A stretch of DNA of 39,234 nt from Elainellaceae cyanobacterium (GTDB lineage: Bacteria; Cyanobacteriota; Cyanobacteriia; CAZCXK01). Below, one piece after another: positions 941 to 31,280 of this stretch. The position numbers and the translations under genes are program-made. A model generated the notes under the pieces. That model saw only the letters and a program-made list of their open reading frames with translations. It was not told the origin of the DNA and made no database searches. Every line of letters starts with the position of its first letter. The first letter of the stretch is position 1. The stretch is from positions 21,423 through 60,656 of the forward strand of contig JBNPEG010000116.1 in the NCBI GenBank assembly GCA_051117555.1. The letters are read 5' to 3'.

Positions 941-2797
941 ATGAAGATTGCGATCGCCCAACTAAATCCTATAATCGGAGATCTGGCAGGCAATGCTCAG
1001 CAAATTTTAGATGCGGCTCATCGCGCTGCTGACCAAGGAGCTCGCTTGATGCTGACCCCTGAAATGTCAATATCCGGTTATCCGCCTCGTGATTTGCTGA
1101 TGCAGCCCAGCTTTGTTGCCAATATGGCAGACACCGTTGAGCAGCTTGCAAGCGACATACCTTCGACATTAGCCGTCTTAGTGGGCACGGCGGAGCTTAA
1201 TGAGCGATCGCTCGATACGGGTGGCAAACCTCTGTTTAACAGCATCGTCCTTTTAGACGGAGGCAGGATTCAGCATCACTTTCATAAGCGTCTCCTGCCG
1301 ACCTACGACGTCTTTGATGACGATCGCTACTTTTCGGCTGATTCTCAAAGCAATTTTTTCACGCTTGAGCCAACTGATTCAATCCACTCCCCCATTCGCG
1401 TCGGCGTCACCATTTGCGAAGACCTTTGGAATGATGAAGAATTTTGGGGCAAGCGGAACTACAAAGCTAATCCACTCGACGATTTAGCTGCCCAGTCGGT
1501 TGATCTGATCGTTAATTTGTCGGGGTCGCCCTATTCTCTTGGCAAACAACGGCTCAGAGAAGCCATGCTCAACCACGCGGCGATGCGCTATCGCATCCCG
1601 ATTCTCTATGTGAATCAGGTGGGCGGCAATGATGATTTGATTTTTGACGGCAGCAGTGTTGGGTTTAACCGCAGCGGTCAGGTCGTCTGTCGTGCGAAAG
1701 CCTTTCAACCTGACTTAGCCATTGCAGAATTTGACCCAGAACGCCGCGATTTTCTGGCAAGCCCTATTACGGCTTTACCTGAAAGCGACGATGCAGAAAT
1801 CTGGTCGGCGCTGGTTTTAGGCGTTCGTGACTATGCCCACAAGTGCGGATTTTCTAAGGTTGTGATTGGGCTGAGCGGCGGTATCGACTCATCATTAGTG
1901 GCGGCGATCGCCACGGCTGCATTTGGGGCTGAGAATGTGTTGGGAGTTTTGATGCCATCTCCCTACAGTTCTGAACACTCCGTTCGCGATGCCAACGATT
2001 TAGCTGCCAATCTCGGCATTCGCACTGAAACCTTGCCCATTCAAGATTTGATGACCGCCTACGATCAAACGTTTGCAGAGTTGTTTGCGGGCACTGAGAT
2101 TGGGGTGGCTGAAGAAAATATTCAGTCTCGGATTCGAGGTAACTTGCTGATGGCGATCGCCAATAAATTTAGCTATCTGCTGCTCTCAACGGGTAATAAA
2201 TCAGAAATGGCAGTCGGCTACTGCACGCTGTATGGCGATATGAATGGCGGGCTAGCGGCGATCGCAGATGTTCCTAAGACGCGCGTGTATTCGCTGTGTC
2301 GGTGGCTGAATGAGCAGGCAACTCATCAGCCCAATCAGGAGAATGGGCAATGTGACCCGCCCTTTCCGGTTCCTCGTCCTGCGCTCTCATCCACTGAAAT
2401 TATTTCGAGCAACGTGCTTTCAAAGCCTCCCAGTGCCGAACTCAAGCCTGGACAAGTCGACCAAGATGCTCTGCCGTCCTATGACATTTTGGATGACATC
2501 TTGCATCGACTCATTCACGAACACGAATCACCCCGCACTATTGCCGCTGCCGGACACGATCCGCACACGATAGATAAAATCGTTAAGCTCGTCACTCGGG
2601 CCGAATTTAAGCGTAAGCAAGCTCCCCCAGCGCTAAAGGTCACCGACCGCGCGTTTGGCACGGGTTGGCGCATGCCGATTGCCTGTAAGTGGTCCGTTGC
2701 CAGTGCTCAATCGGTTTCTAAGACGACCGAATCCAGTGAGACGGCACCACCCGCTCCTTCTGAAGCCGCCCAACTTATCGATAATATATCTCCCTGA
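941..2797 (+). CDS. nadE: Glutamine-dependent NAD+ synthetase
   Basis: Nitrilase-type domain with E-K-C triad (TPEM, HKRLLP, ICEDLW) plus synthetase domain (GLSGGIDS, ENIQSRIRG, TGNKSE, PSAEL). ATG at 941 (MKIAIAQLNP) preferred over TTG at 914. Confidence 0.95.
   Translation: MKIAIAQLNPIIGDLAGNAQQILDAAHRAADQGARLMLTPEMSISGYPPRDLLMQPSFVANMADTVEQLASDIPSTLAVLVGTAELNERSLDTGGKPLFNSIVLLDGGRIQHHFHKRLLPTYDVFDDDRYFSADSQSNFFTLEPTDSIHSPIRVGVTICEDLWNDEEFWGKRNYKANPLDDLAAQSVDLIVNLSGSPYSLGKQRLREAMLNHAAMRYRIPILYVNQVGGNDDLIFDGSSVGFNRSGQVVCRAKAFQPDLAIAEFDPERRDFLASPITALPESDDAEIWSALVLGVRDYAHKCGFSKVVIGLSGGIDSSLVAAIATAAFGAENVLGVLMPSPYSSEHSVRDANDLAANLGIRTETLPIQDLMTAYDQTFAELFAGTEIGVAEENIQSRIRGNLLMAIANKFSYLLLSTGNKSEMAVGYCTLYGDMNGGLAAIADVPKTRVYSLCRWLNEQATHQPNQENGQCDPPFPVPRPALSSTEIISSNVLSKPPSAELKPGQVDQDALPSYDILDDILHRLIHEHESPRTIAAAGHDPHTIDKIVKLVTRAEFKRKQAPPALKVTDRAFGTGWRMPIACKWSVASAQSVSKTTESSETAPPAPSEAAQLIDNISP
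950..957. repeat. HIP1 octamer GCGATCGC (one example of many copies across the window)
   Basis: The palindrome recurs in most genes and spacers, a hallmark of cyanobacterial genomes. Confidence 0.9.
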
Positions 2798-25184: not shown

Positions 25185-25312
25185 TCAGACAACCTTGACT
25201 AACGCCCCGACGGAGCCATTTCGATAGAATAAGACAAGAAAGACACGTCAAGACATCATGATCAATCTAATGCCCTTGTGTCTAGTCGTTAGGAGAATGG
25301 TTGTCAGTCAAC

Positions 25313-26056
25313 ATGGTTGAAACGGTTCAGATATGGCTCTACGAGCTTAGTCAATTTGCAGATCAGCTTGTAGAGAGCCAGCTTGATCACCTCAGTGTTG
25401 TGAGTGTCGGCATCATTTTTTTGGCGGGCTTGCTCACGAGCCTGACCCCCTGCATGCTCTCGATGTTGCCGATTACGATTGGCTATATTGGCGGCTATGA
25501 AACCAAAAGCCGAATTCAAGCTGCCGCCCAATCGGCATGGTTTTCATTGGGGTTGGCAACCACATTAGCTGGATTAGGGATTTTAGCGGCGATCGCCGGA
25601 CGAGTGTACGGGCAAATTGGTATTGGTCTACCGATCATCGTCAGCATCATTGCCATTCTGATGGGGCTTAATCTGCTCGAAGCCCTGCCCCTTCGCTTGC
25701 CATCGCTGGGTGGCATGGAATGGATTTCGAACGACCTCCCTGAAGGCGCCCGATCGTATCTGATCGGATTAACCTTTGGACTGGTCGCATCACCCTGTAG
25801 CACACCCGTTCTGGCGACTCTGTTAGCTTGGGTATCTACAACAAAAGATCCCCTTCTAGGAAGTATTTTGCTCGCCTCCTACACCGCGGGATATGTTGCG
25901 CCTCTAGTGCTAGCTGGAACATTTACTGCATCCATCAAAAAACTTCTTGAATTTCGACGCTGGTCGGGTTGGATCACTCCAGCGAGCGGTGCTATTTTAG
26001 TTGGGTTTGGCGTATTTTCGCTGCTGTTTCGCCTCGTTCCAACCGCTAGTTTTTAA
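25313..26056 (+). CDS. ccdA: Cytochrome c biogenesis protein CcdA (DsbD transmembrane-like)
   Basis: Two redox Cys motifs (SLTPCMLSMLP, ASPCSTPVL) and multiple TM helices. Alternative TTG start at 25301 has AGGAG upstream. Confidence 0.92.
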   Translation: MVETVQIWLYELSQFADQLVESQLDHLSVVSVGIIFLAGLLTSLTPCMLSMLPITIGYIGGYETKSRIQAAAQSAWFSLGLATTLAGLGILAAIAGRVYGQIGIGLPIIVSIIAILMGLNLLEALPLRLPSLGGMEWISNDLPEGARSYLIGLTFGLVASPCSTPVLATLLAWVSTTKDPLLGSILLASYTAGYVAPLVLAGTFTASIKKLLEFRRWSGWITPASGAILVGFGVFSLLFRLVPTASF

Positions 26057-26138
26057 GCACTCGATTTAAAGCAACGATTCTAAGACCGCAATTCATGTCC
26101 ACGCATTAAAACCAACTTTTTATCATCCGCTTAATTCA

Positions 26139-27572
26139 ATGACCTCAGACCCCTCCAACCCGACGAATCGATTAAGCTGGAGCCATCACCTTCGGCAATA
26201 TTTTAGACAAGACCTATTGCCGTTGCTCGCAGATTTACGGCTGGCGATTCTTTTGCTGCTGGCGATCGCCCTATTTAGCATCTCAGGAACCGTCATCGAG
26301 CAAGGGCAATCCGTCCAGTTTTATCGAGAGAATTATCCTGAACAGCCTGCCCTATTTGGATTTCTGACGTGGAAGGTGATTCTCATTGCAGGGCTGGATC
26401 ACGTCTATCGCACCTGGTGGTTTTTGGCGCTCTTGATTTTATTTGGGGCTAGCCTCACCGCCTGCACCTTCACTCGCCAGTTGCCGACGCTCAAGTCTTC
26501 TCGAAACTGGAAATTTTATGGCCAGCCTCGTCAATTTCAAAAACTTGCCCTAAGCGCCGAATTGGATACGGGGTCTCCCGATTCGCTCGCCACCCTGCTT
26601 GATAAAAAAGGGTATCGAGTCTTTCAAGATGCAAACAAGCTTTATGCCCGGAAAGGACTTGCAGGTCGCATCGGTCCCATCGTCGTTCATGCCAGTATGT
26701 TAATCATCCTGACTGGAGCAATCATTGGGGCGATGACTGGATTCTTCGCCCAAGAAATAGTTCCGAGCGGTGAAACCTTTCAAGTCAGAAATATTTTTGA
26801 TGCGGGACCGTGGGCAGCCGCTCAGATTCCCACCGATTGGTCAGTCCGGGTCAATAAATTTTGGATTGACTATACGCCCGAAGGCACCATTGACCAATTT
26901 TACTCCGACCTGTCTGTGTTGAATCTCGATGGGGAAGAACTCGATCGCAAAACAATTCACGTGAATGAGCCCTTACGCCACGACGGAGTGACTCTCTATC
27001 AAGCAGATTGGGGAATTGCCGCTATTCGCGTCAAGTTGAATGATAGCCCCGTGCTTCAGTTGCCAATGGCACAAATCGATGCAGGCGTACCTGGACGCAT
27101 TTGGGGAACTTGGATTCCGACCAAACCCGATTTGAGTGACGGCGTTGCAGTCGTTGCCAAAGACTTGCAAGGGATGCTGTTGGTTTACGATACGTCTGGC
27201 AAACCCGTTGCGACCGTTCGCGAAGGAATGTCTACCGAGGTCAACGGAGTCACCCTATCTCTGGTTGAACTCGTCGGCAGCACCGGGCTTCAAATCAAAG
27301 CCGATCCGGGAATCCCGGTGGTGTATACCGGCTTTGGACTGCTGATGGTAGGGGTCTTGATGAGCTACGTGTCTCACTCTCAGATTTGGGCGCTCCGCCA
27401 GGGAGACAAGCTATACGTTGGCGGGAGAACCAATCGAGCTCAAGTTGTCTTTGAGCGAGAAACCCTAGGAATCTTGGATGAACTCAGTGCAGTACCCGAT
27501 GAGTCAGGGTTTCAACCGTCAGATGACCTTGGGATACCGGATCAAAGCAATTCACCTAGCGCAGTGTCTTGA
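26139..27572 (+). CDS. ccs1: Cytochrome c biogenesis protein Ccs1/CcsB (ResB family)
   Basis: [45 protein letters not shown] and GLQIKADPG. Confidence 0.94.
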
Positions 27573-27967: not shown

Positions 27968-28070
27968 ATACCAATTCTTCGAAGTAAGACTATAAATGAA
28001 CAGGCTAGAGCTCTTGCAAGGCGGGTGGCCGTCAATCCAAAATCGCAAATCTAAAATCGAGAATTGGTAT
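27968..28070. mobile_element. 103-bp MITE-like element with TIRs and internal heptamer array (copy 1)
   Basis: Perfect 11-bp TIRs ATACCAATTCT (27968-27978) and AGAATTGGTAT (28060-28070). Contains AATCCAA AATCGCA AATCTAA AATCGAG. Confidence 0.65.
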
Positions 28071-29389
28071 TAGCTGCTGCTTGGTCCGCTACTGCGAGGT
28101 TTTCGATCAAGCAAGGCAGCTTCTTCTAAGGCTACTTTCTCCTTAGCCCGACGCGCATAGGGTTGTAGATGCTCTAGGTCAACCCCCGTTAAGATGCTGA
28201 GATTTTCTAACGTCATACCCCGCATGAGCATTTCTACACACCAGGTTTGATGTGCTTGGGCGATCGCCGGAGGTTGCCCCTCGGGTGTTAATAAGCCTTC
28301 AATCCACATATGCCAGTGCTGACGAATGGTTGCATCTGACATCGGCTGATTCTCATCGATAAACATGGCTGAATGGTCATCTTTGCGGCTCTTTAACCAT
28401 TTGGTCAACGGGTTGTTGGTATACGAGCCATAACGCTTGCCCAAGATCCATTGGTTTACAGGAACTTGGCGTTTACCGCTCGGAGTCGTTACTTGTAATA
28501 CGTGCTGATGAGCATCACAAATCTGATGGGATCGCTGCAGCCCAGCTAATTCACCCGGCAACAGCCCCGCCCCGAAGAGGACATAGGCAAGCGCATAATC
28601 TTGAGGATTTGACTTGCGAGCATTTCGCAAAATCGTATGAACAAGGGTAGCAGGCAGGTCTAGGACATTTTGGTTTAACTGCTCCCTTGAATCTGCATCT
28701 GACAAGTCTGCTAATAAATGGTAACTCTCCCCTTTCAGCGGTGAAGAATTAGAGTTGATTAGTGGGTCTGTTTGGGACACGGTTGAGAAAGGCGAAAACG
28801 CACCGTTCGAAAATAGACGGGTTACCTGATCTAGAAATTCATCTCGATTTGACCAAAGTTGGTGAGAATCACTCGTGAATTCAACGATGGCATAGCCTAG
28901 CAAAATCGCATTCAACAAACTGGCAAATGTCTCAGAGTCGAGATGAGGCGCGAGGTGTTCTTGCTGAATGACATCCGCCAGAAATTTGGCGACACGACGA
29001 TTCGCTTCGGTCAATCCACGTCCGATTGCCTGTCGATTTTCTGGCGGATATTGGTCTGCTTCCCCAATGACTGACCTGACAAATTCTGGCATCCGATCAA
29101 GCGTTTTCAGGCATGAGCGAGCATATTCTTTGAGCATCTGATTCGCATCACCCGATACATTAATCCGCTGGATCAGAACCTCTGCCAAATTTGTAAACGT
29201 CGGCGATTCTTCGATAACGGCCAAAAATAATCCATATTTATTTCCAAAGTTGCGAAAGAGCGTCACTTCATTAACTCCCGCTAAGTTCGCAATTTGCCGA
29301 GTCGTCGTGCTGCTAACTCCCTGAGAGACAAATAATTCTAGGGCAGCTTGAATGAGCCGTTGGCGGGTTGACGTGGATTGAGCAGACAT
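28070..29389 (-). CDS. TetR/AcrR regulator fused to a degenerate tyrosine-recombinase-like C-terminal domain
   Basis: TetR HTH (TRQRLIQAALELF...TTRQIANLAGVNEVTLFRNFGNK). C-terminal box I-like QDYALAYVLFGAGLLPGELAGL and box II-like AQAHQTWCVEMLMRGMTLENLSILTG..LQPY. ATG at 29389. Confidence 0.85.
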   Translation of the reverse strand: MSAQSTSTRQRLIQAALELFVSQGVSSTTTRQIANLAGVNEVTLFRNFGNKYGLFLAVIEESPTFTNLAEVLIQRINVSGDANQMLKEYARSCLKTLDRMPEFVRSVIGEADQYPPENRQAIGRGLTEANRRVAKFLADVIQQEHLAPHLDSETFASLLNAILLGYAIVEFTSDSHQLWSNRDEFLDQVTRLFSNGAFSPFSTVSQTDPLINSNSSPLKGESYHLLADLSDADSREQLNQNVLDLPATLVHTILRNARKSNPQDYALAYVLFGAGLLPGELAGLQRSHQICDAHQHVLQVTTPSGKRQVPVNQWILGKRYGSYTNNPLTKWLKSRKDDHSAMFIDENQPMSDATIRQHWHMWIEGLLTPEGQPPAIAQAHQTWCVEMLMRGMTLENLSILTGVDLEHLQPYARRAKEKVALEEAALLDRKPRSSGPSSS

Positions 29390-29412
29390 AAAGCGTAATG
29401 ATGCAAACAACA

Positions 29413-29481
29413 TGCAAGTGATACTTGCACAAGCGTATCAGACTTGTTAGGATTGCAAATGTAAGTGATACTTGCATTTGC
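29413..29481. promoter_or_regulatory. Two palindromic operator-like boxes in the divergent TetR/desaturase promoter
   Basis: TGCAAGT-GAT-ACTTGCA (29413-29429) and GCAAATGTAAGT-GAT-ACTTGCATTTGC (29455-29481) share the core AAGTGATACTTGCA. Confidence 0.75.
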
Positions 29482-29516: not shown

Positions 29517-30377
29517 ATGAACTCACCCTTTGTGATAAAAGCCTCAGGCGATGAATCTTCTCTAAAACTGAGTTGGATCAGCGTTGCCTTCTTCGGCGCG
29601 TTTCATGCGTTAACGGTATTGGCTCCTTGGTTTTTCTCGTGGTCTGCACTGGGGGTCATGCTGTTACTGCACTGGCTTTTTGGAGGAATCGGCATCTGCC
29701 TGGGATATCATCGGATGCTGAGCCATCGGAGTTTTCGGGTGCCTCGATGGCTAGAGTATGCGATCGCCATTTGTGGAGCCCTCGCCATTCAAGGCGGACC
29801 GATCTTCTGGGTCAGCGGACATCGCCAGCATCATGCCTATACCGAAGATGTCGAAAACGATCCCTATTCTGCCAGGCGTGGATTTTGGTGGAGCCATGTT
29901 CTCTGGATTCTCTATCCTCAACCTAAGGCATTTGACCAAAAATGCTATAGCAAATACGCCCCTGATTTGATGCGTCAGCCTTTCTATCGGTGGCTCAACC
30001 GCAACTTTTTGTTGCTGCAAGTGCCACTAGCAGTCCTGCTGTATGCGATCGGTGGATGGTCATTTGTCATTTACGGTATTTTCGTCCGGGCAGTCTTTTT
30101 GTGGCATTCAACCTGGTTTGTCAATTCTGCGACTCATAAGTGGGGATATCGCACATTCGCTGCTGACGATAACGCTCGCAACCTGTGGTGGGTGTCCCTC
30201 ATGACCTATGGGGAAGGCTGGCACAATAATCACCATGCGTTTCCTCGCTCGGCACAAACGGGCTGGCGTTGGTGGGAAATCGATGTGACGTGGTGGACAA
30301 TTCGGCTTTTAGAAAGGCTCGGCCTCGCTAAAAAGGTCGGCGTCATTCCAGTCAAACGCGACAAGCAGCCTGTTTAG
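29517..30377 (+). CDS. desC: Delta-9-type acyl-lipid/acyl-CoA fatty acid desaturase (DesC-like)
   Basis: Three His boxes (GYHRMLSH, HRQHH, GEGWHNNHH), plus GFWWSH, WFVNSATH and WWEIDVT. AAGGA RBS. It may be a paralog rather than the primary desC. Confidence 0.88.
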   Translation: MNSPFVIKASGDESSLKLSWISVAFFGAFHALTVLAPWFFSWSALGVMLLLHWLFGGIGICLGYHRMLSHRSFRVPRWLEYAIAICGALAIQGGPIFWVSGHRQHHAYTEDVENDPYSARRGFWWSHVLWILYPQPKAFDQKCYSKYAPDLMRQPFYRWLNRNFLLLQVPLAVLLYAIGGWSFVIYGIFVRAVFLWHSTWFVNSATHKWGYRTFAADDNARNLWWVSLMTYGEGWHNNHHAFPRSAQTGWRWWEIDVTWWTIRLLERLGLAKKVGVIPVKRDKQPV

Positions 30378-30542: not shown

Positions 30543-31280
30543 CTACAGAGTTTGCGACTCCAAGCAAAGCGGGGCCAAGCCGAGATATCGAATCCCGTCA
30601 GGGGTGACATCAAATCGGCAGGGGAGCACCTCAACCCCTTTGGCGATCGCATCTCTCAGCAACCGCCCATATTTGGGATCGGCACTGTCTCCCGGTGAAA
30701 AATGAGTACAATCGCCTCGATTGATGTAATACAGCATGACGGCTCTTGCGTTAGGGCGCAGTGCCATTAGCTCAAGGAGGTGCTTTTGCCCTCGCGTTGT
30801 CACCGTATCCGGAAACAGTGCAAGTGTCCCTTGCACCCAAGTCGTGTTCTTGACTTCTAAATACAGGGGAAGCTGATTCTCCCCGGTTAACAAAAAGTCA
30901 ATTCGACTCTTACTATTTGCGCCGTATGCTACCTCCTGGCGGATGTTATGGTAGCACGCTAGCTCAGGAAATAAGGACGCCTGAAGCGCCGATTTAATCA
31001 CTCGATTGGGAAGCGCTGTATTCACTCCAACCCAGGTGGGCTCTGTGTCGGTTGCCTCAATCAATTCCCAGGTATAGGCAAGCTTACGTTTTGGGTTAGT
31101 GCTATGCGAAACCCGAACTCGGCTACCGACCTTGCATACGCCTGTCATTGGTCCAGTATTAGGACAATGGGCGGTAATCGTTTCTCCTGAATCAAGCTGA
31201 ATATCGGCAAAGAACCGTTTATATCGCTTAAGCAATATACCAGGATAGAGCGTGGGATACGGATAATGCCAATCAGTCAT
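30543..31280 (-). CDS. sfsA: DNA/RNA nuclease SfsA (sugar fermentation stimulation protein)
   Basis: KRYKRFFAD, AHCPNTGPM, SRIDFLL, LEVKNTT and FPDTVTTRGQKHL. ATG at 31280 overlaps the GNAT stop (ATGACTGA). Confidence 0.95.
   Translation of the reverse strand: MTDWHYPYPTLYPGILLKRYKRFFADIQLDSGETITAHCPNTGPMTGVCKVGSRVRVSHSTNPKRKLAYTWELIEATDTEPTWVGVNTALPNRVIKSALQASLFPELACYHNIRQEVAYGANSKSRIDFLLTGENQLPLYLEVKNTTWVQGTLALFPDTVTTRGQKHLLELMALRPNARAVMLYYINRGDCTHFSPGDSADPKYGRLLRDAIAKGVEVLPCRFDVTPDGIRYLGLAPLCLESQTL

Follow-up and report, generated by a model that had tools for sequence, protein, structure and literature searches.

A TetR-family regulator with a degenerate tyrosine-recombinase domain and its probable role as local repressor of a DesC2-type Delta9 desaturase in cyanobacteria

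What does the catalytic fold of a tyrosine recombinase do at the end of a TetR-family transcriptional regulator, and which gene is such a protein likely to control? The question is raised by one gene in a DNA stretch of 39,234 nucleotides from an Elainellaceae cyanobacterium (assembly GCA_051117555.1, contig JBNPEG010000116.1, positions 21,423 to 60,656 of the forward strand). The whole of this stretch is referred to below as the window, and positions without a genome or contig label are positions within it. The gene is oriented divergently to a gene encoding a DesC2-type Delta9 acyl-lipid desaturase. The most informative feature of the locus is the invariant pairing with the desaturase gene together with the dual operator between the two genes. 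The protein is likely to be a local, probably autoregulated TetR-family repressor of the desaturase, with its recombinase-like C-terminal domain in an accessory role. The two genes are located as follows.

28070..29389, minus strand: coding sequence of the TetR/dead-recombinase regulator, 439 residues from Met9, plus the stop codon.
29517..30377, plus strand: DesC2-type Delta9 acyl-lipid desaturase gene, the presumed target (Pfam FA_desaturase, E 9.6e-24).

The open reading frame of the regulator extends from 28070 to 29413 on the minus strand and encodes 447 residues from its first ATG, an upstream in-frame codon at 29411-29413 from which residues are numbered throughout. Translation is likely to start at Met9 (29389), because the homologs begin there and the database call for the gene is 439 residues long.

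In an even sample of 401 cyanobacterial genomes, hereafter the phylum sample, the regulator was found in 45, in a single copy each and always as an open frame of 404-471 residues. These loci were analysed together with 80 public loci, mostly from Nostocales, obtained in a protein-alignment search. The two sets share eight proteins, so that the 125 loci represent 117 distinct proteins and 122 distinct intergenic regions. A desaturase ortholog was adjacent and divergent in all 80 public loci and in all 45 sample genomes, and the pairing held down to a regulator identity of 37% and across at least 16 coded family groups of the sample. In Anabaena PCC 7120, the ortholog of the regulator is alr4992 and its neighbour is all4991. 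Table 1 of PMC2593844 lists the latter among the Delta9 desaturases; it is distinct from all1599 of the desC-desA-desB cluster (PMC2593844), and the 857-nt Delta9 type is placed in the clade acting at sn-2, called DesC2 (PMC2593844, PMC4390868).

At an identity of at least 62% to the window desaturase, 80 genes were detected in 69 sample genomes, the next matches reaching 57% or less. Of these 69 genomes, 44 possessed the long regulator and 25 did not. The 45th regulator-bearing genome (G346) carried a split desaturase gene beside the regulator. At this locus (L107, G346:C29), tblastn split the desaturase next to an intact regulator into two pieces that overlap (residues 1-97 and 82-205), and the whole-genome desaturase match reached only 6.7e-91, which suggests a frameshifted gene or a pseudogene. 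One further copy of the regulator, 59% identical to that of the window, was located on a 3208-bp contig (CAZZZY010000809.1, locus L069) of a metagenome bin labelled Acetobacteraceae; it looks like a binning stray and not a transfer, because all other matches were cyanobacterial.

Two palindromes, designated O1 and O2, and a predicted promoter directed toward the desaturase lie in the 127 bp that separate Met9 from the desaturase start.

29413..29429: predicted operator O1, perfect palindrome TGCAAGT-GAT-ACTTGCA, from palindrome conservation.
29460..29476: predicted operator O2, TGTAAGT-GAT-ACTTGCA, 47 bp from O1 (start to start), from palindrome conservation.
29425-29430, toward the desaturase: predicted -35 element TTGCAC in the right arm of O1, from consensus reading.
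29445..29453, plus strand: predicted extended -10 element TGtTAGGAT between the operators, from consensus reading.

The palindrome consensus is 17 bp long, TG(C/T)AAGT-N3-ACTTGC(A/T). Exactly two such palindromes, with at most three mismatches in the 14 arm positions, were present in 125 of the 125 intergenic regions, and their start-to-start spacing was 46-48 bp in 117 of these loci. The scan of the whole 6.06-Mb genome revealed five places with at most one mismatch, four of them within 1.4 kb at the regulator locus, and the control with a reversed pattern gave 2+2. Within the 39-kb window, four sites were detected at two mismatches or fewer versus 0.36 in shuffled sequence. Among 26 DesC2-like genes from genomes without the long regulator, 23 had no site within 900 bp upstream. 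Two of the remaining three lie beside short TetR orthologs (in G017 and G272), and the third (L149) has a lone site with two mismatches. Similarly, no site was found for nine of the ten unpaired second DesC2-like copies in regulator-bearing genomes. The operator follows the regulator, not the desaturase. O1 is located 7-11 nt from the start codon of the regulator in 105 of the 125 loci, which suggests autoregulation.

The best-conserved positions of the spacer between the palindromes are TG, TA and T, that is, an extended -10 element TGnTAnnnT aimed at the desaturase. TANNNT was found 4-9 nt before O2 in 122 of the 125 loci, preceded by TGn in 119 of those. It is separated from TTGCAn in the right arm of O1 by 17 nt in 106 loci; in another 14, the separation is 18 nt. 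On this geometry, O1 would cover the -35 element and O2 the predicted +1 of the desaturase promoter.

The search with the TetR part in the phylum sample returned the 45 long regulators and two short orthologs, all beside a DesC2-type desaturase, followed by a gap to proteins of 31-32% identity. The short ortholog of G017 (L165, G017:C1:1739630-1743600, frame 1191-1913) has 240 residues, is 53% identical to the TetR part of the window protein, and terminates in a tail rich in Pro and Ala, the recombinase-like domain being absent. It is divergent from a DesC2-like desaturase gene, with two perfect operators 47 bp apart in between. The second short ortholog (G272, L166, frame 1215-1979) has 254 residues and 41% identity; it also has no recombinase-like domain and is divergent from a DesC2-like desaturase gene, with one site at two mismatches or fewer. 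In a quick tree, the G017 form was nested among long forms with a Shimodaira-Hasegawa-like approximate likelihood ratio (SH-aLRT) support of 82-89, which is not strong, and the G272 form was on a long branch of ambiguous placement. Since the G017 locus keeps both operators in the absence of the recombinase-like domain, it is probably the TetR part that reads the operators. The recombinase-like domain seems to be an accessory module, apparently lost in at least one lineage.

The domains of the window protein are arranged as follows.

29216..29356, minus strand: TetR_N helix-turn-helix DNA-binding domain, residues 20-66 (Pfam PF00440).
28799..29203, minus strand: TetR-type helical ligand/dimerisation domain, residues 71-205 (TetR_C_13 and structural model).
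28664..28798, minus strand: variable, disordered linker, residues 206-250 (model confidence and low identity).
28103..28663, minus strand: tyrosine-recombinase catalytic-fold domain without the catalytic set, residues 251-437 (Pfam, profile and structural model).

The N-terminal part matched PF00440 with an E-value of 2.2e-13 (50.2 bits versus a cut-off of 24). The match of residues 114-174 to TetR_C_13 was borderline, with 27.1 bits versus a cut-off of 27, and those to TetR_C_11 and TetR_C_7 were weaker. In the predicted full-length model, the ligand domain was all-helical, with a predicted local distance difference test score (pLDDT) above 88 and helices across residues 59-204. The top PDB matches of the TetR part were AcrR-like, and matches of the AcrR/TtgR type extended to about residue 160 of the domain. 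As judged by these matches, the TetR part is an ordinary member of the TetR family. Linker residues 210-216 and 218-242 had a pLDDT below 50 and the full-length model a predicted template-modelling score (pTM) of 0.51, which, with two confident domains on either side, indicates that the recombinase-like domain is flexibly tethered. The mean pairwise identity among the 45 genomes was 0.74 for the helix-turn-helix, 0.61 for the TetR ligand domain, 0.15 for the linker and 0.61 for the recombinase-like domain. The identity of the latter thus equals that of the ligand domain, which points to equally strong purifying selection on both.

The C-terminal 223 residues alone matched PF00589 (Phage_integrase) over profile positions 8-170 of 172 with an E-value of 2.5e-4. 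The score of the window domain, 21.3-21.7 bits, is below the curated cut-off of 27.1, and orthologs above the cut-off exist (for example P0122 with 39.5 bits and P0149 with 37.8 bits). The C-terminal domains of the 45 phylum-sample orthologs were aligned (alignment A2) and provided the family profile. The family was matched by PF00589 at E<=0.01 in 42 of these 45 domains, with a best E-value of 2.2e-12. In the PDB, the A2 profile aligned with nearly the whole catalytic domain of archaeal XerA (4a8e, E 4.9e-9), followed by XerD and the Tn1549 integrase. Among 1.84 billion representative proteins it found 253 at E<=0.001. The first matches outside the family, at E-values of about 2e-9 and weaker, were proteins of 280-320 residues, and in all ten of those scanned, a SAM-like core-binding domain accompanied Phage_integrase (E 1e-32 or better). 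TetR_N was present in all 13 scanned family representatives, which had 321-462 residues. The AlphaFold2 model of the C-terminal domain built on A2 reached a pLDDT of 93.2 and a pTM of 0.87. Foldseek returned 62 PDB matches at E<=0.001, of which the best 50 were all tyrosine recombinases, with XerA (5hxy) on top (E 5.8e-8, TMq 0.70), and the ESM Atlas search gave the same Phage_integrase assignment. The C-terminal domain is a tyrosine-recombinase catalytic fold behind a TetR regulator. An earlier note, made from the letters of this DNA, had proposed such a XerC/D-like fold behind a TetR module at 28103-28666, that is, residues 250-437 of the 28070..29413 frame. The motifs and coordinates it quoted are all present, the Pfam, XerA profile and Foldseek results agree with it, and Foldseek on a model was one of the checks that it had named.

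The A2 profile had no other match at E<=1 in the window genome and did not detect five Phage_integrase matches encoded there. A recent origin of the domain from a resident recombinase is thus not supported.

The catalytic positions were read from an alignment in which the 45 family domains were fitted to the family profile along with 40 real recombinases. The three segments concerned are QDYALAYVLFGAGLLPGELAGL (residues 270-291), GKRQVPV (residues 313-319) and AQAHQTWCVEMLMRGMTLENLSILTGVDLEHLQPY (residues 385-419). Two codons serve as landmarks.

28559..28561, minus strand: codon of Leu285, the Arg I position (profile alignment).
28157..28159, minus strand: codon of Tyr419, the recombinase nucleophile position, the sole member of the catalytic set kept in the window protein.

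At the Arg I position, the family has Ser in 35 domains, Thr in four, Leu in two and Tyr, Asn and Arg in one each (n = 45), and real recombinases have Arg in 35 of 40. The Lys position corresponds to Thr309/310 of the window protein and is Lys in none of the 45; real recombinases are poorly resolved there in a loop alignment. At the His II position, the window protein has Ala385, and the family 18 Ala, 17 Glu and no His, versus His in 29 of the 40 real recombinases. The Arg II position is His388 in the window protein, Gln in 36 and Arg in five family members, and Arg in 36 of 40 real recombinases. The His/Trp III position is Val411; it is occupied by Cys in 22 members, Trp in 11 and His in none, the real recombinases having 27 His and four Trp (n = 40). 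Tyr is found at the nucleophile position in 43 of the 45 family domains and in 23 of the 40 real recombinases, 14 of which have gaps there. Taken together, the six positions display 26 residue patterns across 45 genomes, at most four of the six residues are kept, and the full set is kept in none. The least degenerate member, that of L116 (G083:C14, C-terminal domain at 1501-2106, minus strand), keeps Arg I (in TGLRPQE), Arg II, Trp and Tyr and has lost the equivalents of Lys and His II; it may be the nearest to an ancestral active domain.

Fold-typical residues without a catalytic role are kept, namely Glu288 (43 Glu and two Asp among 45) and Arg315 (45 of 45). Specific to the family is an insert of ten residues behind the beta-hairpin, WILGKRYGSY, which is nearly invariant and has no counterpart in real recombinases; the domain also has a long conserved C-terminal helix. 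The net charge of the domain averages +2.1 (standard deviation 2.5, n = 45) versus +8.9 in the 40 real recombinases, counted over their aligned part. The earlier note had read the catalytic Arg as replaced by Leu, HxxR and the second His as lost and the Tyr as kept, and Leu285, Ala385, His388, Val411 and Tyr419 bear this out. The homolog alignment that it had suggested as a check gave Tyr in 43 of 45, Arg I in one, His II in none and Arg II in five. Its equation of GKRQVPV with the K.R.VP strand of recombinases holds for R315-x-V-P, the only part conserved, and not for K314, which is off the catalytic Lys position and unconserved in the family.

Tyrosine recombinases require both arginines and the lysine for cleavage. 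As far as the residues can tell, the catalytic set is lost and the domain should no longer have recombinase chemistry. In addition, no Phage_int_SAM family, that is, no SAM-like core-binding domain, was found by Pfam in the window protein, the N-terminus of which is the TetR module. Nor was a context of mobile elements, inversion or resolution encountered in the 125 loci, where the gene is part of a stable single-copy chromosomal pair in the same arrangement throughout. With the catalytic set, the core-binding domain and the mobile context all missing, the C-terminal domain is not to be classed as a recombinase.

The nearest known systems share some of these features. Xer-type recombinases (XerA 4a8e/5hxy, XerH, XerD) are the best matches in sequence and structure; the alignment runs through the whole catalytic domain, and the regulator has the box-I Glu, the R-x-V-P strand and the Tyr in common with them. 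In contrast to them, the C-terminal domain of the regulator has no SAM-like domain in front and other residues in place of Arg I, Lys, His II, Arg II and His III; it carries the 10-residue insert, and its charge is about +2 versus +9. A dead tyrosine-recombinase fold acting as a repressor has already been documented. MrpR (YopR) of phage SPbeta is described as a DNA-binding repressor with this fold in which most catalytic residues are lost and the Tyr, which matters for stability and DNA binding, is kept (PMC10516654). MrpR/YopR and SroF of phage phi3T resemble the regulator in having the fold without the arginines and histidines, in keeping the Tyr and the box-I Glu, and in their repression role (PMC10516654). 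MrpR differs in that it is a stand-alone phage protein with core-binding and catalytic domains, keeps the Lys and reads its own DNA element (PMC10516654), whereas the regulator has the catalytic domain alone, behind a complete TetR protein, at a chromosomal housekeeping locus, with sequence recognition probably by the TetR part.

A comparable fate is reported for the DUF3504 proteins of animals (ZMYM2/3/4, QRICH1, KCTD1 and WOC), which are domesticated Crypton tyrosine recombinases (PMC3212892). There, too, most catalytic residues are lost and the fold is fused to other DNA-binding domains in transcriptional regulators, and the authors proposed DNA binding or protein-protein contact as its role (PMC3212892). 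The DUF3504 proteins differ in being eukaryotic and transposon-derived and in having lost the catalytic Tyr as well (PMC3212892). A possible kinship with PfsR (Sll1392) of Synechocystis PCC 6803, raised in the earlier note, was not borne out. PfsR is likewise a cyanobacterial TetR-family autoregulator, but it has 203 residues and no C-terminal extra domain and is linked to iron homeostasis (PMC4092027), and is thus set apart by length and description. Moreover, in the phylum sample every ortholog of the TetR part has a DesC2-type desaturase gene as its neighbour, and beyond these orthologs identity drops to 31-32%.

DesT is the closest functional analogy for the TetR part. To our knowledge, it has no extra C-terminal domain. 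In Pseudomonas aeruginosa, this TetR repressor acts at the promoter of the desCB Delta9 desaturase operon under acyl control; its binding there is weakened by saturated and strengthened by unsaturated acyl-CoA (PMC10634369). DesT differs in sensing acyl-CoA and in also controlling fabAB. The cyanobacterial target differs from its own, being an acyl-lipid desaturase acting at sn-2 (PMC4390868, PMC2593844).

In the mechanism that we propose, TetR dimers would bind both 17-bp palindromes. A dimer on O1 would cover the -35 element just upstream of the regulator's start codon, and a dimer on O2 would cover the predicted transcription start. With both sites occupied, the desaturase promoter would be shut, and the regulator's own gene would probably be repressed too. 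Repression would be released by a signal at the TetR ligand domain, probably an acyl-chain ligand by analogy with DesT, FabR and FadR. The C-terminal domain would, as a best guess, strengthen the repression complex. It could touch the DNA opposite the helix-turn-helix motifs, the TetR domain replacing the missing core-binding domain, a role for which the DNA-binding MrpR is the precedent, or link the dimers bound at O1 and O2 by re-used recombinase-type protein contacts. We infer the repression, its ligand and the role of the C-terminal domain from sequence. For that role, we would tentatively name contact with DNA first, followed by the bridging of dimers and the binding of a signal or partner, which we rate alike, and we give an active enzyme very little credit. 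For the roles suggested in the earlier note (DNA bending, a second DNA-binding module or oligomerisation), the indirect evidence is mixed, namely a conservation equal to that of the ligand domain, a low net charge and a natural ortholog whose operators are both kept without the domain.

Several observations weigh against this proposal. The loci are phylogenetically related, so that the counts overstate the independent support. DesC2-like genes occur without any regulator ortholog in 23 sample genomes, which shows that a cyanobacterium can do without the regulator and still have the desaturase. The placement of O1 over the -35 element and of O2 over the +1 is a consensus reading, and no consistent -10/-35 pair was seen by eye in the intergenic sequence for the regulator's own promoter. 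The TetR part has no special similarity to DesT among its PDB matches at E<=0.001, the best of which are AcrR-like. As for the C-terminal domain, Glu occupies the His II position in 17 of the 45 members, which, like the net charge of +2.1, makes it less likely that DNA is bound in the former active-site cleft. The geometry of the promoter alone explains the constant O1-O2 spacing, which consequently gives no support for bridging by the domain; together with the G017 locus, where both operators stand 47 bp apart and the domain is absent, this removes the positive argument for dimer bridging. Finally, residual chemistry may be possible in the L116 lineage.

Alternatively, the recombinase-like domain may be a module for signal input or partner binding (a lipid or acyl ligand, temperature, a protein dock) that modulates the TetR part via the tether, which we regard as possible though doubtful. 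The loss of most of the positive charge (+2.1 versus +8.9), the Glu in the old cleft of 17 of 45 members and the G017 short ortholog, which keeps both operators without the domain, are in accordance with it, and the WILGKRYGSY insert and the long conserved C-terminal helix suggest a new surface. A single substitution in MrpR makes repression temperature-sensitive (PMC10516654), which demonstrates, if only for a mutant, that temperature can be transmitted through this fold. Apart from the conserved new surfaces, however, nothing speaks positively for a signal or partner role. No ligand pocket or partner has been identified, and there is no conserved third gene nearby, the cytochrome c biogenesis genes next to the window locus being absent from 80 of 80 public loci. 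The ligand domain of the TetR part, the usual sensor of the TetR family, is intact, and MrpR, the only studied dead recombinase-fold regulator, binds DNA (PMC10516654).

A bolder version of the repressor proposal holds that the C-terminal domain joins operator-bound TetR dimers into a synapse-like tetramer without chemistry, which would lock the desC2 promoter between O1 and O2. The domain would have kept the capacity of recombinases to assemble on DNA and would act through the re-used contacts named above; we consider this version unlikely. As further parts of it, looping to auxiliary sites at 30016 and 30819 might occur in some lineages, and temperature or the state of the membrane lipids would adjust assembly and thereby repression. 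If true, a recombination synapse would have been re-used as a transcriptional switch for membrane desaturation. The two sites are pattern matches outside the intergenic region, and with O1 and O2 they make up the four matches of the genome-wide scan at this locus.

30016..30032: possible auxiliary site in the desaturase gene, over the LQVPLA codons, one mismatch, status uncertain.
30819..30835: possible auxiliary site in the convergent sfsA gene, one mismatch, status uncertain.

The internal site (+499) was found, at two mismatches or fewer, only where the peptide is LQVPLA (five of six loci) or LQVPVA (one of two loci), and these are too few independent cases to tell selection from coding coincidence. 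Sites at the same codons of the desaturase gene were observed in L010, L082, L119, L120 and L125, and in some Nostocales loci a site lies 0.9-1.4 kb downstream of the desaturase start.

It could also be argued that the protein does not regulate the desaturase at all, the adjacency being a frozen accident and the palindromes serving only autoregulation or another factor. O1 is held at 7-11 nt from the regulator start in 105 of 125 loci and O2 lies anywhere between 11 and 320 nt from the desaturase start, so the sites track the regulator gene more tightly; besides, 23 sample genomes run a DesC2-like gene without the regulator. However, the divergent pairing was conserved in 45 of 45 genomes, at least 16 coded family groups and down to 37% identity, the extended -10 element between the sites faces the desaturase, with its -35 inside O1, in 122 of 125 loci, and the sites are missing from DesC2-like genes without a neighbouring regulator. 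Divergent TetR/target pairs with a common operator region are the norm for the TetR family. The DesT/desCB pair is an example (PMC10634369). Such an accident is, in our judgement, quite improbable.

It is hardly credible that the domain retains enzymatic activity and uses the Tyr on the palindromes as an atypical tyrosine recombinase, a nickase or a topoisomerase. In favour of this are the kept Tyr (43 of 45), Glu288 and Arg315, the four catalytic residues of L116 and the palindromic operators, which are like recombinase core sites. Against it stand Leu, Thr, Ala, His and Val at five of six catalytic positions of the window protein, including those of both arginines and the lysine required for cleavage, the free variation of these positions (26 patterns in 45 genomes), a core-binding domain not found by Pfam, a gene pair that is single-copy in 45 of 45 genomes and keeps one orientation in all 125 loci, where nothing hints at inversion or mobility, and MrpR, which has a similar residue pattern and, according to its authors, no recombination activity (PMC10516654).

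Two observations concern the surroundings of the gene pair. Cytochrome c biogenesis genes (DsbD_TM/CcdA-like and ResB/Ccs1-like) occupy 25301-27572 of the window, convergent to the regulator; this neighbourhood was met in none of the 80 public loci, and L123 alone has a CcdA-like gene, beyond the desaturase. The window genome also encodes a tandem DesC1-like Delta9 pair (G000:C117:15709-17352), 51-52% identical to the window desaturase, and the genome-wide pattern scan found no operator palindrome near it.

Some database entries already bear both Pfam labels (TetR and Phage_integrase). In literature searches, which excluded supplements, no paper was found on a TetR/dead-recombinase fusion, and no transcription factor was found described for any cyanobacterial desaturase gene. 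None of the literature found named alr4992, and mentions of all4991 were not about its regulation. No study of DesC2 regulation in cyanobacteria was found by title or abstract, and no regulator is described in the available part of PMC4390868. New in the present case are a TetR protein fused to nothing but the catalytic domain of a recombinase, the strict link to DesC2, the dual operator and the natural short forms.

The repressor proposal, which we consider likely, thus provides a named, conserved candidate regulator with predicted operators and a predicted promoter, by which the control of sn-2 16:0 desaturation becomes testable, and Anabaena PCC 7120, with alr4992 and all4991, is a genetically tractable host. 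The regulator would be a second, independent bacterial case, after the phage protein MrpR, in which a tyrosine-recombinase fold is retained in a role other than catalysis, here as one domain of a one-component regulator. The short orthologs are natural truncation controls, which makes the family a good system for learning what a recombinase fold contributes without its chemistry.

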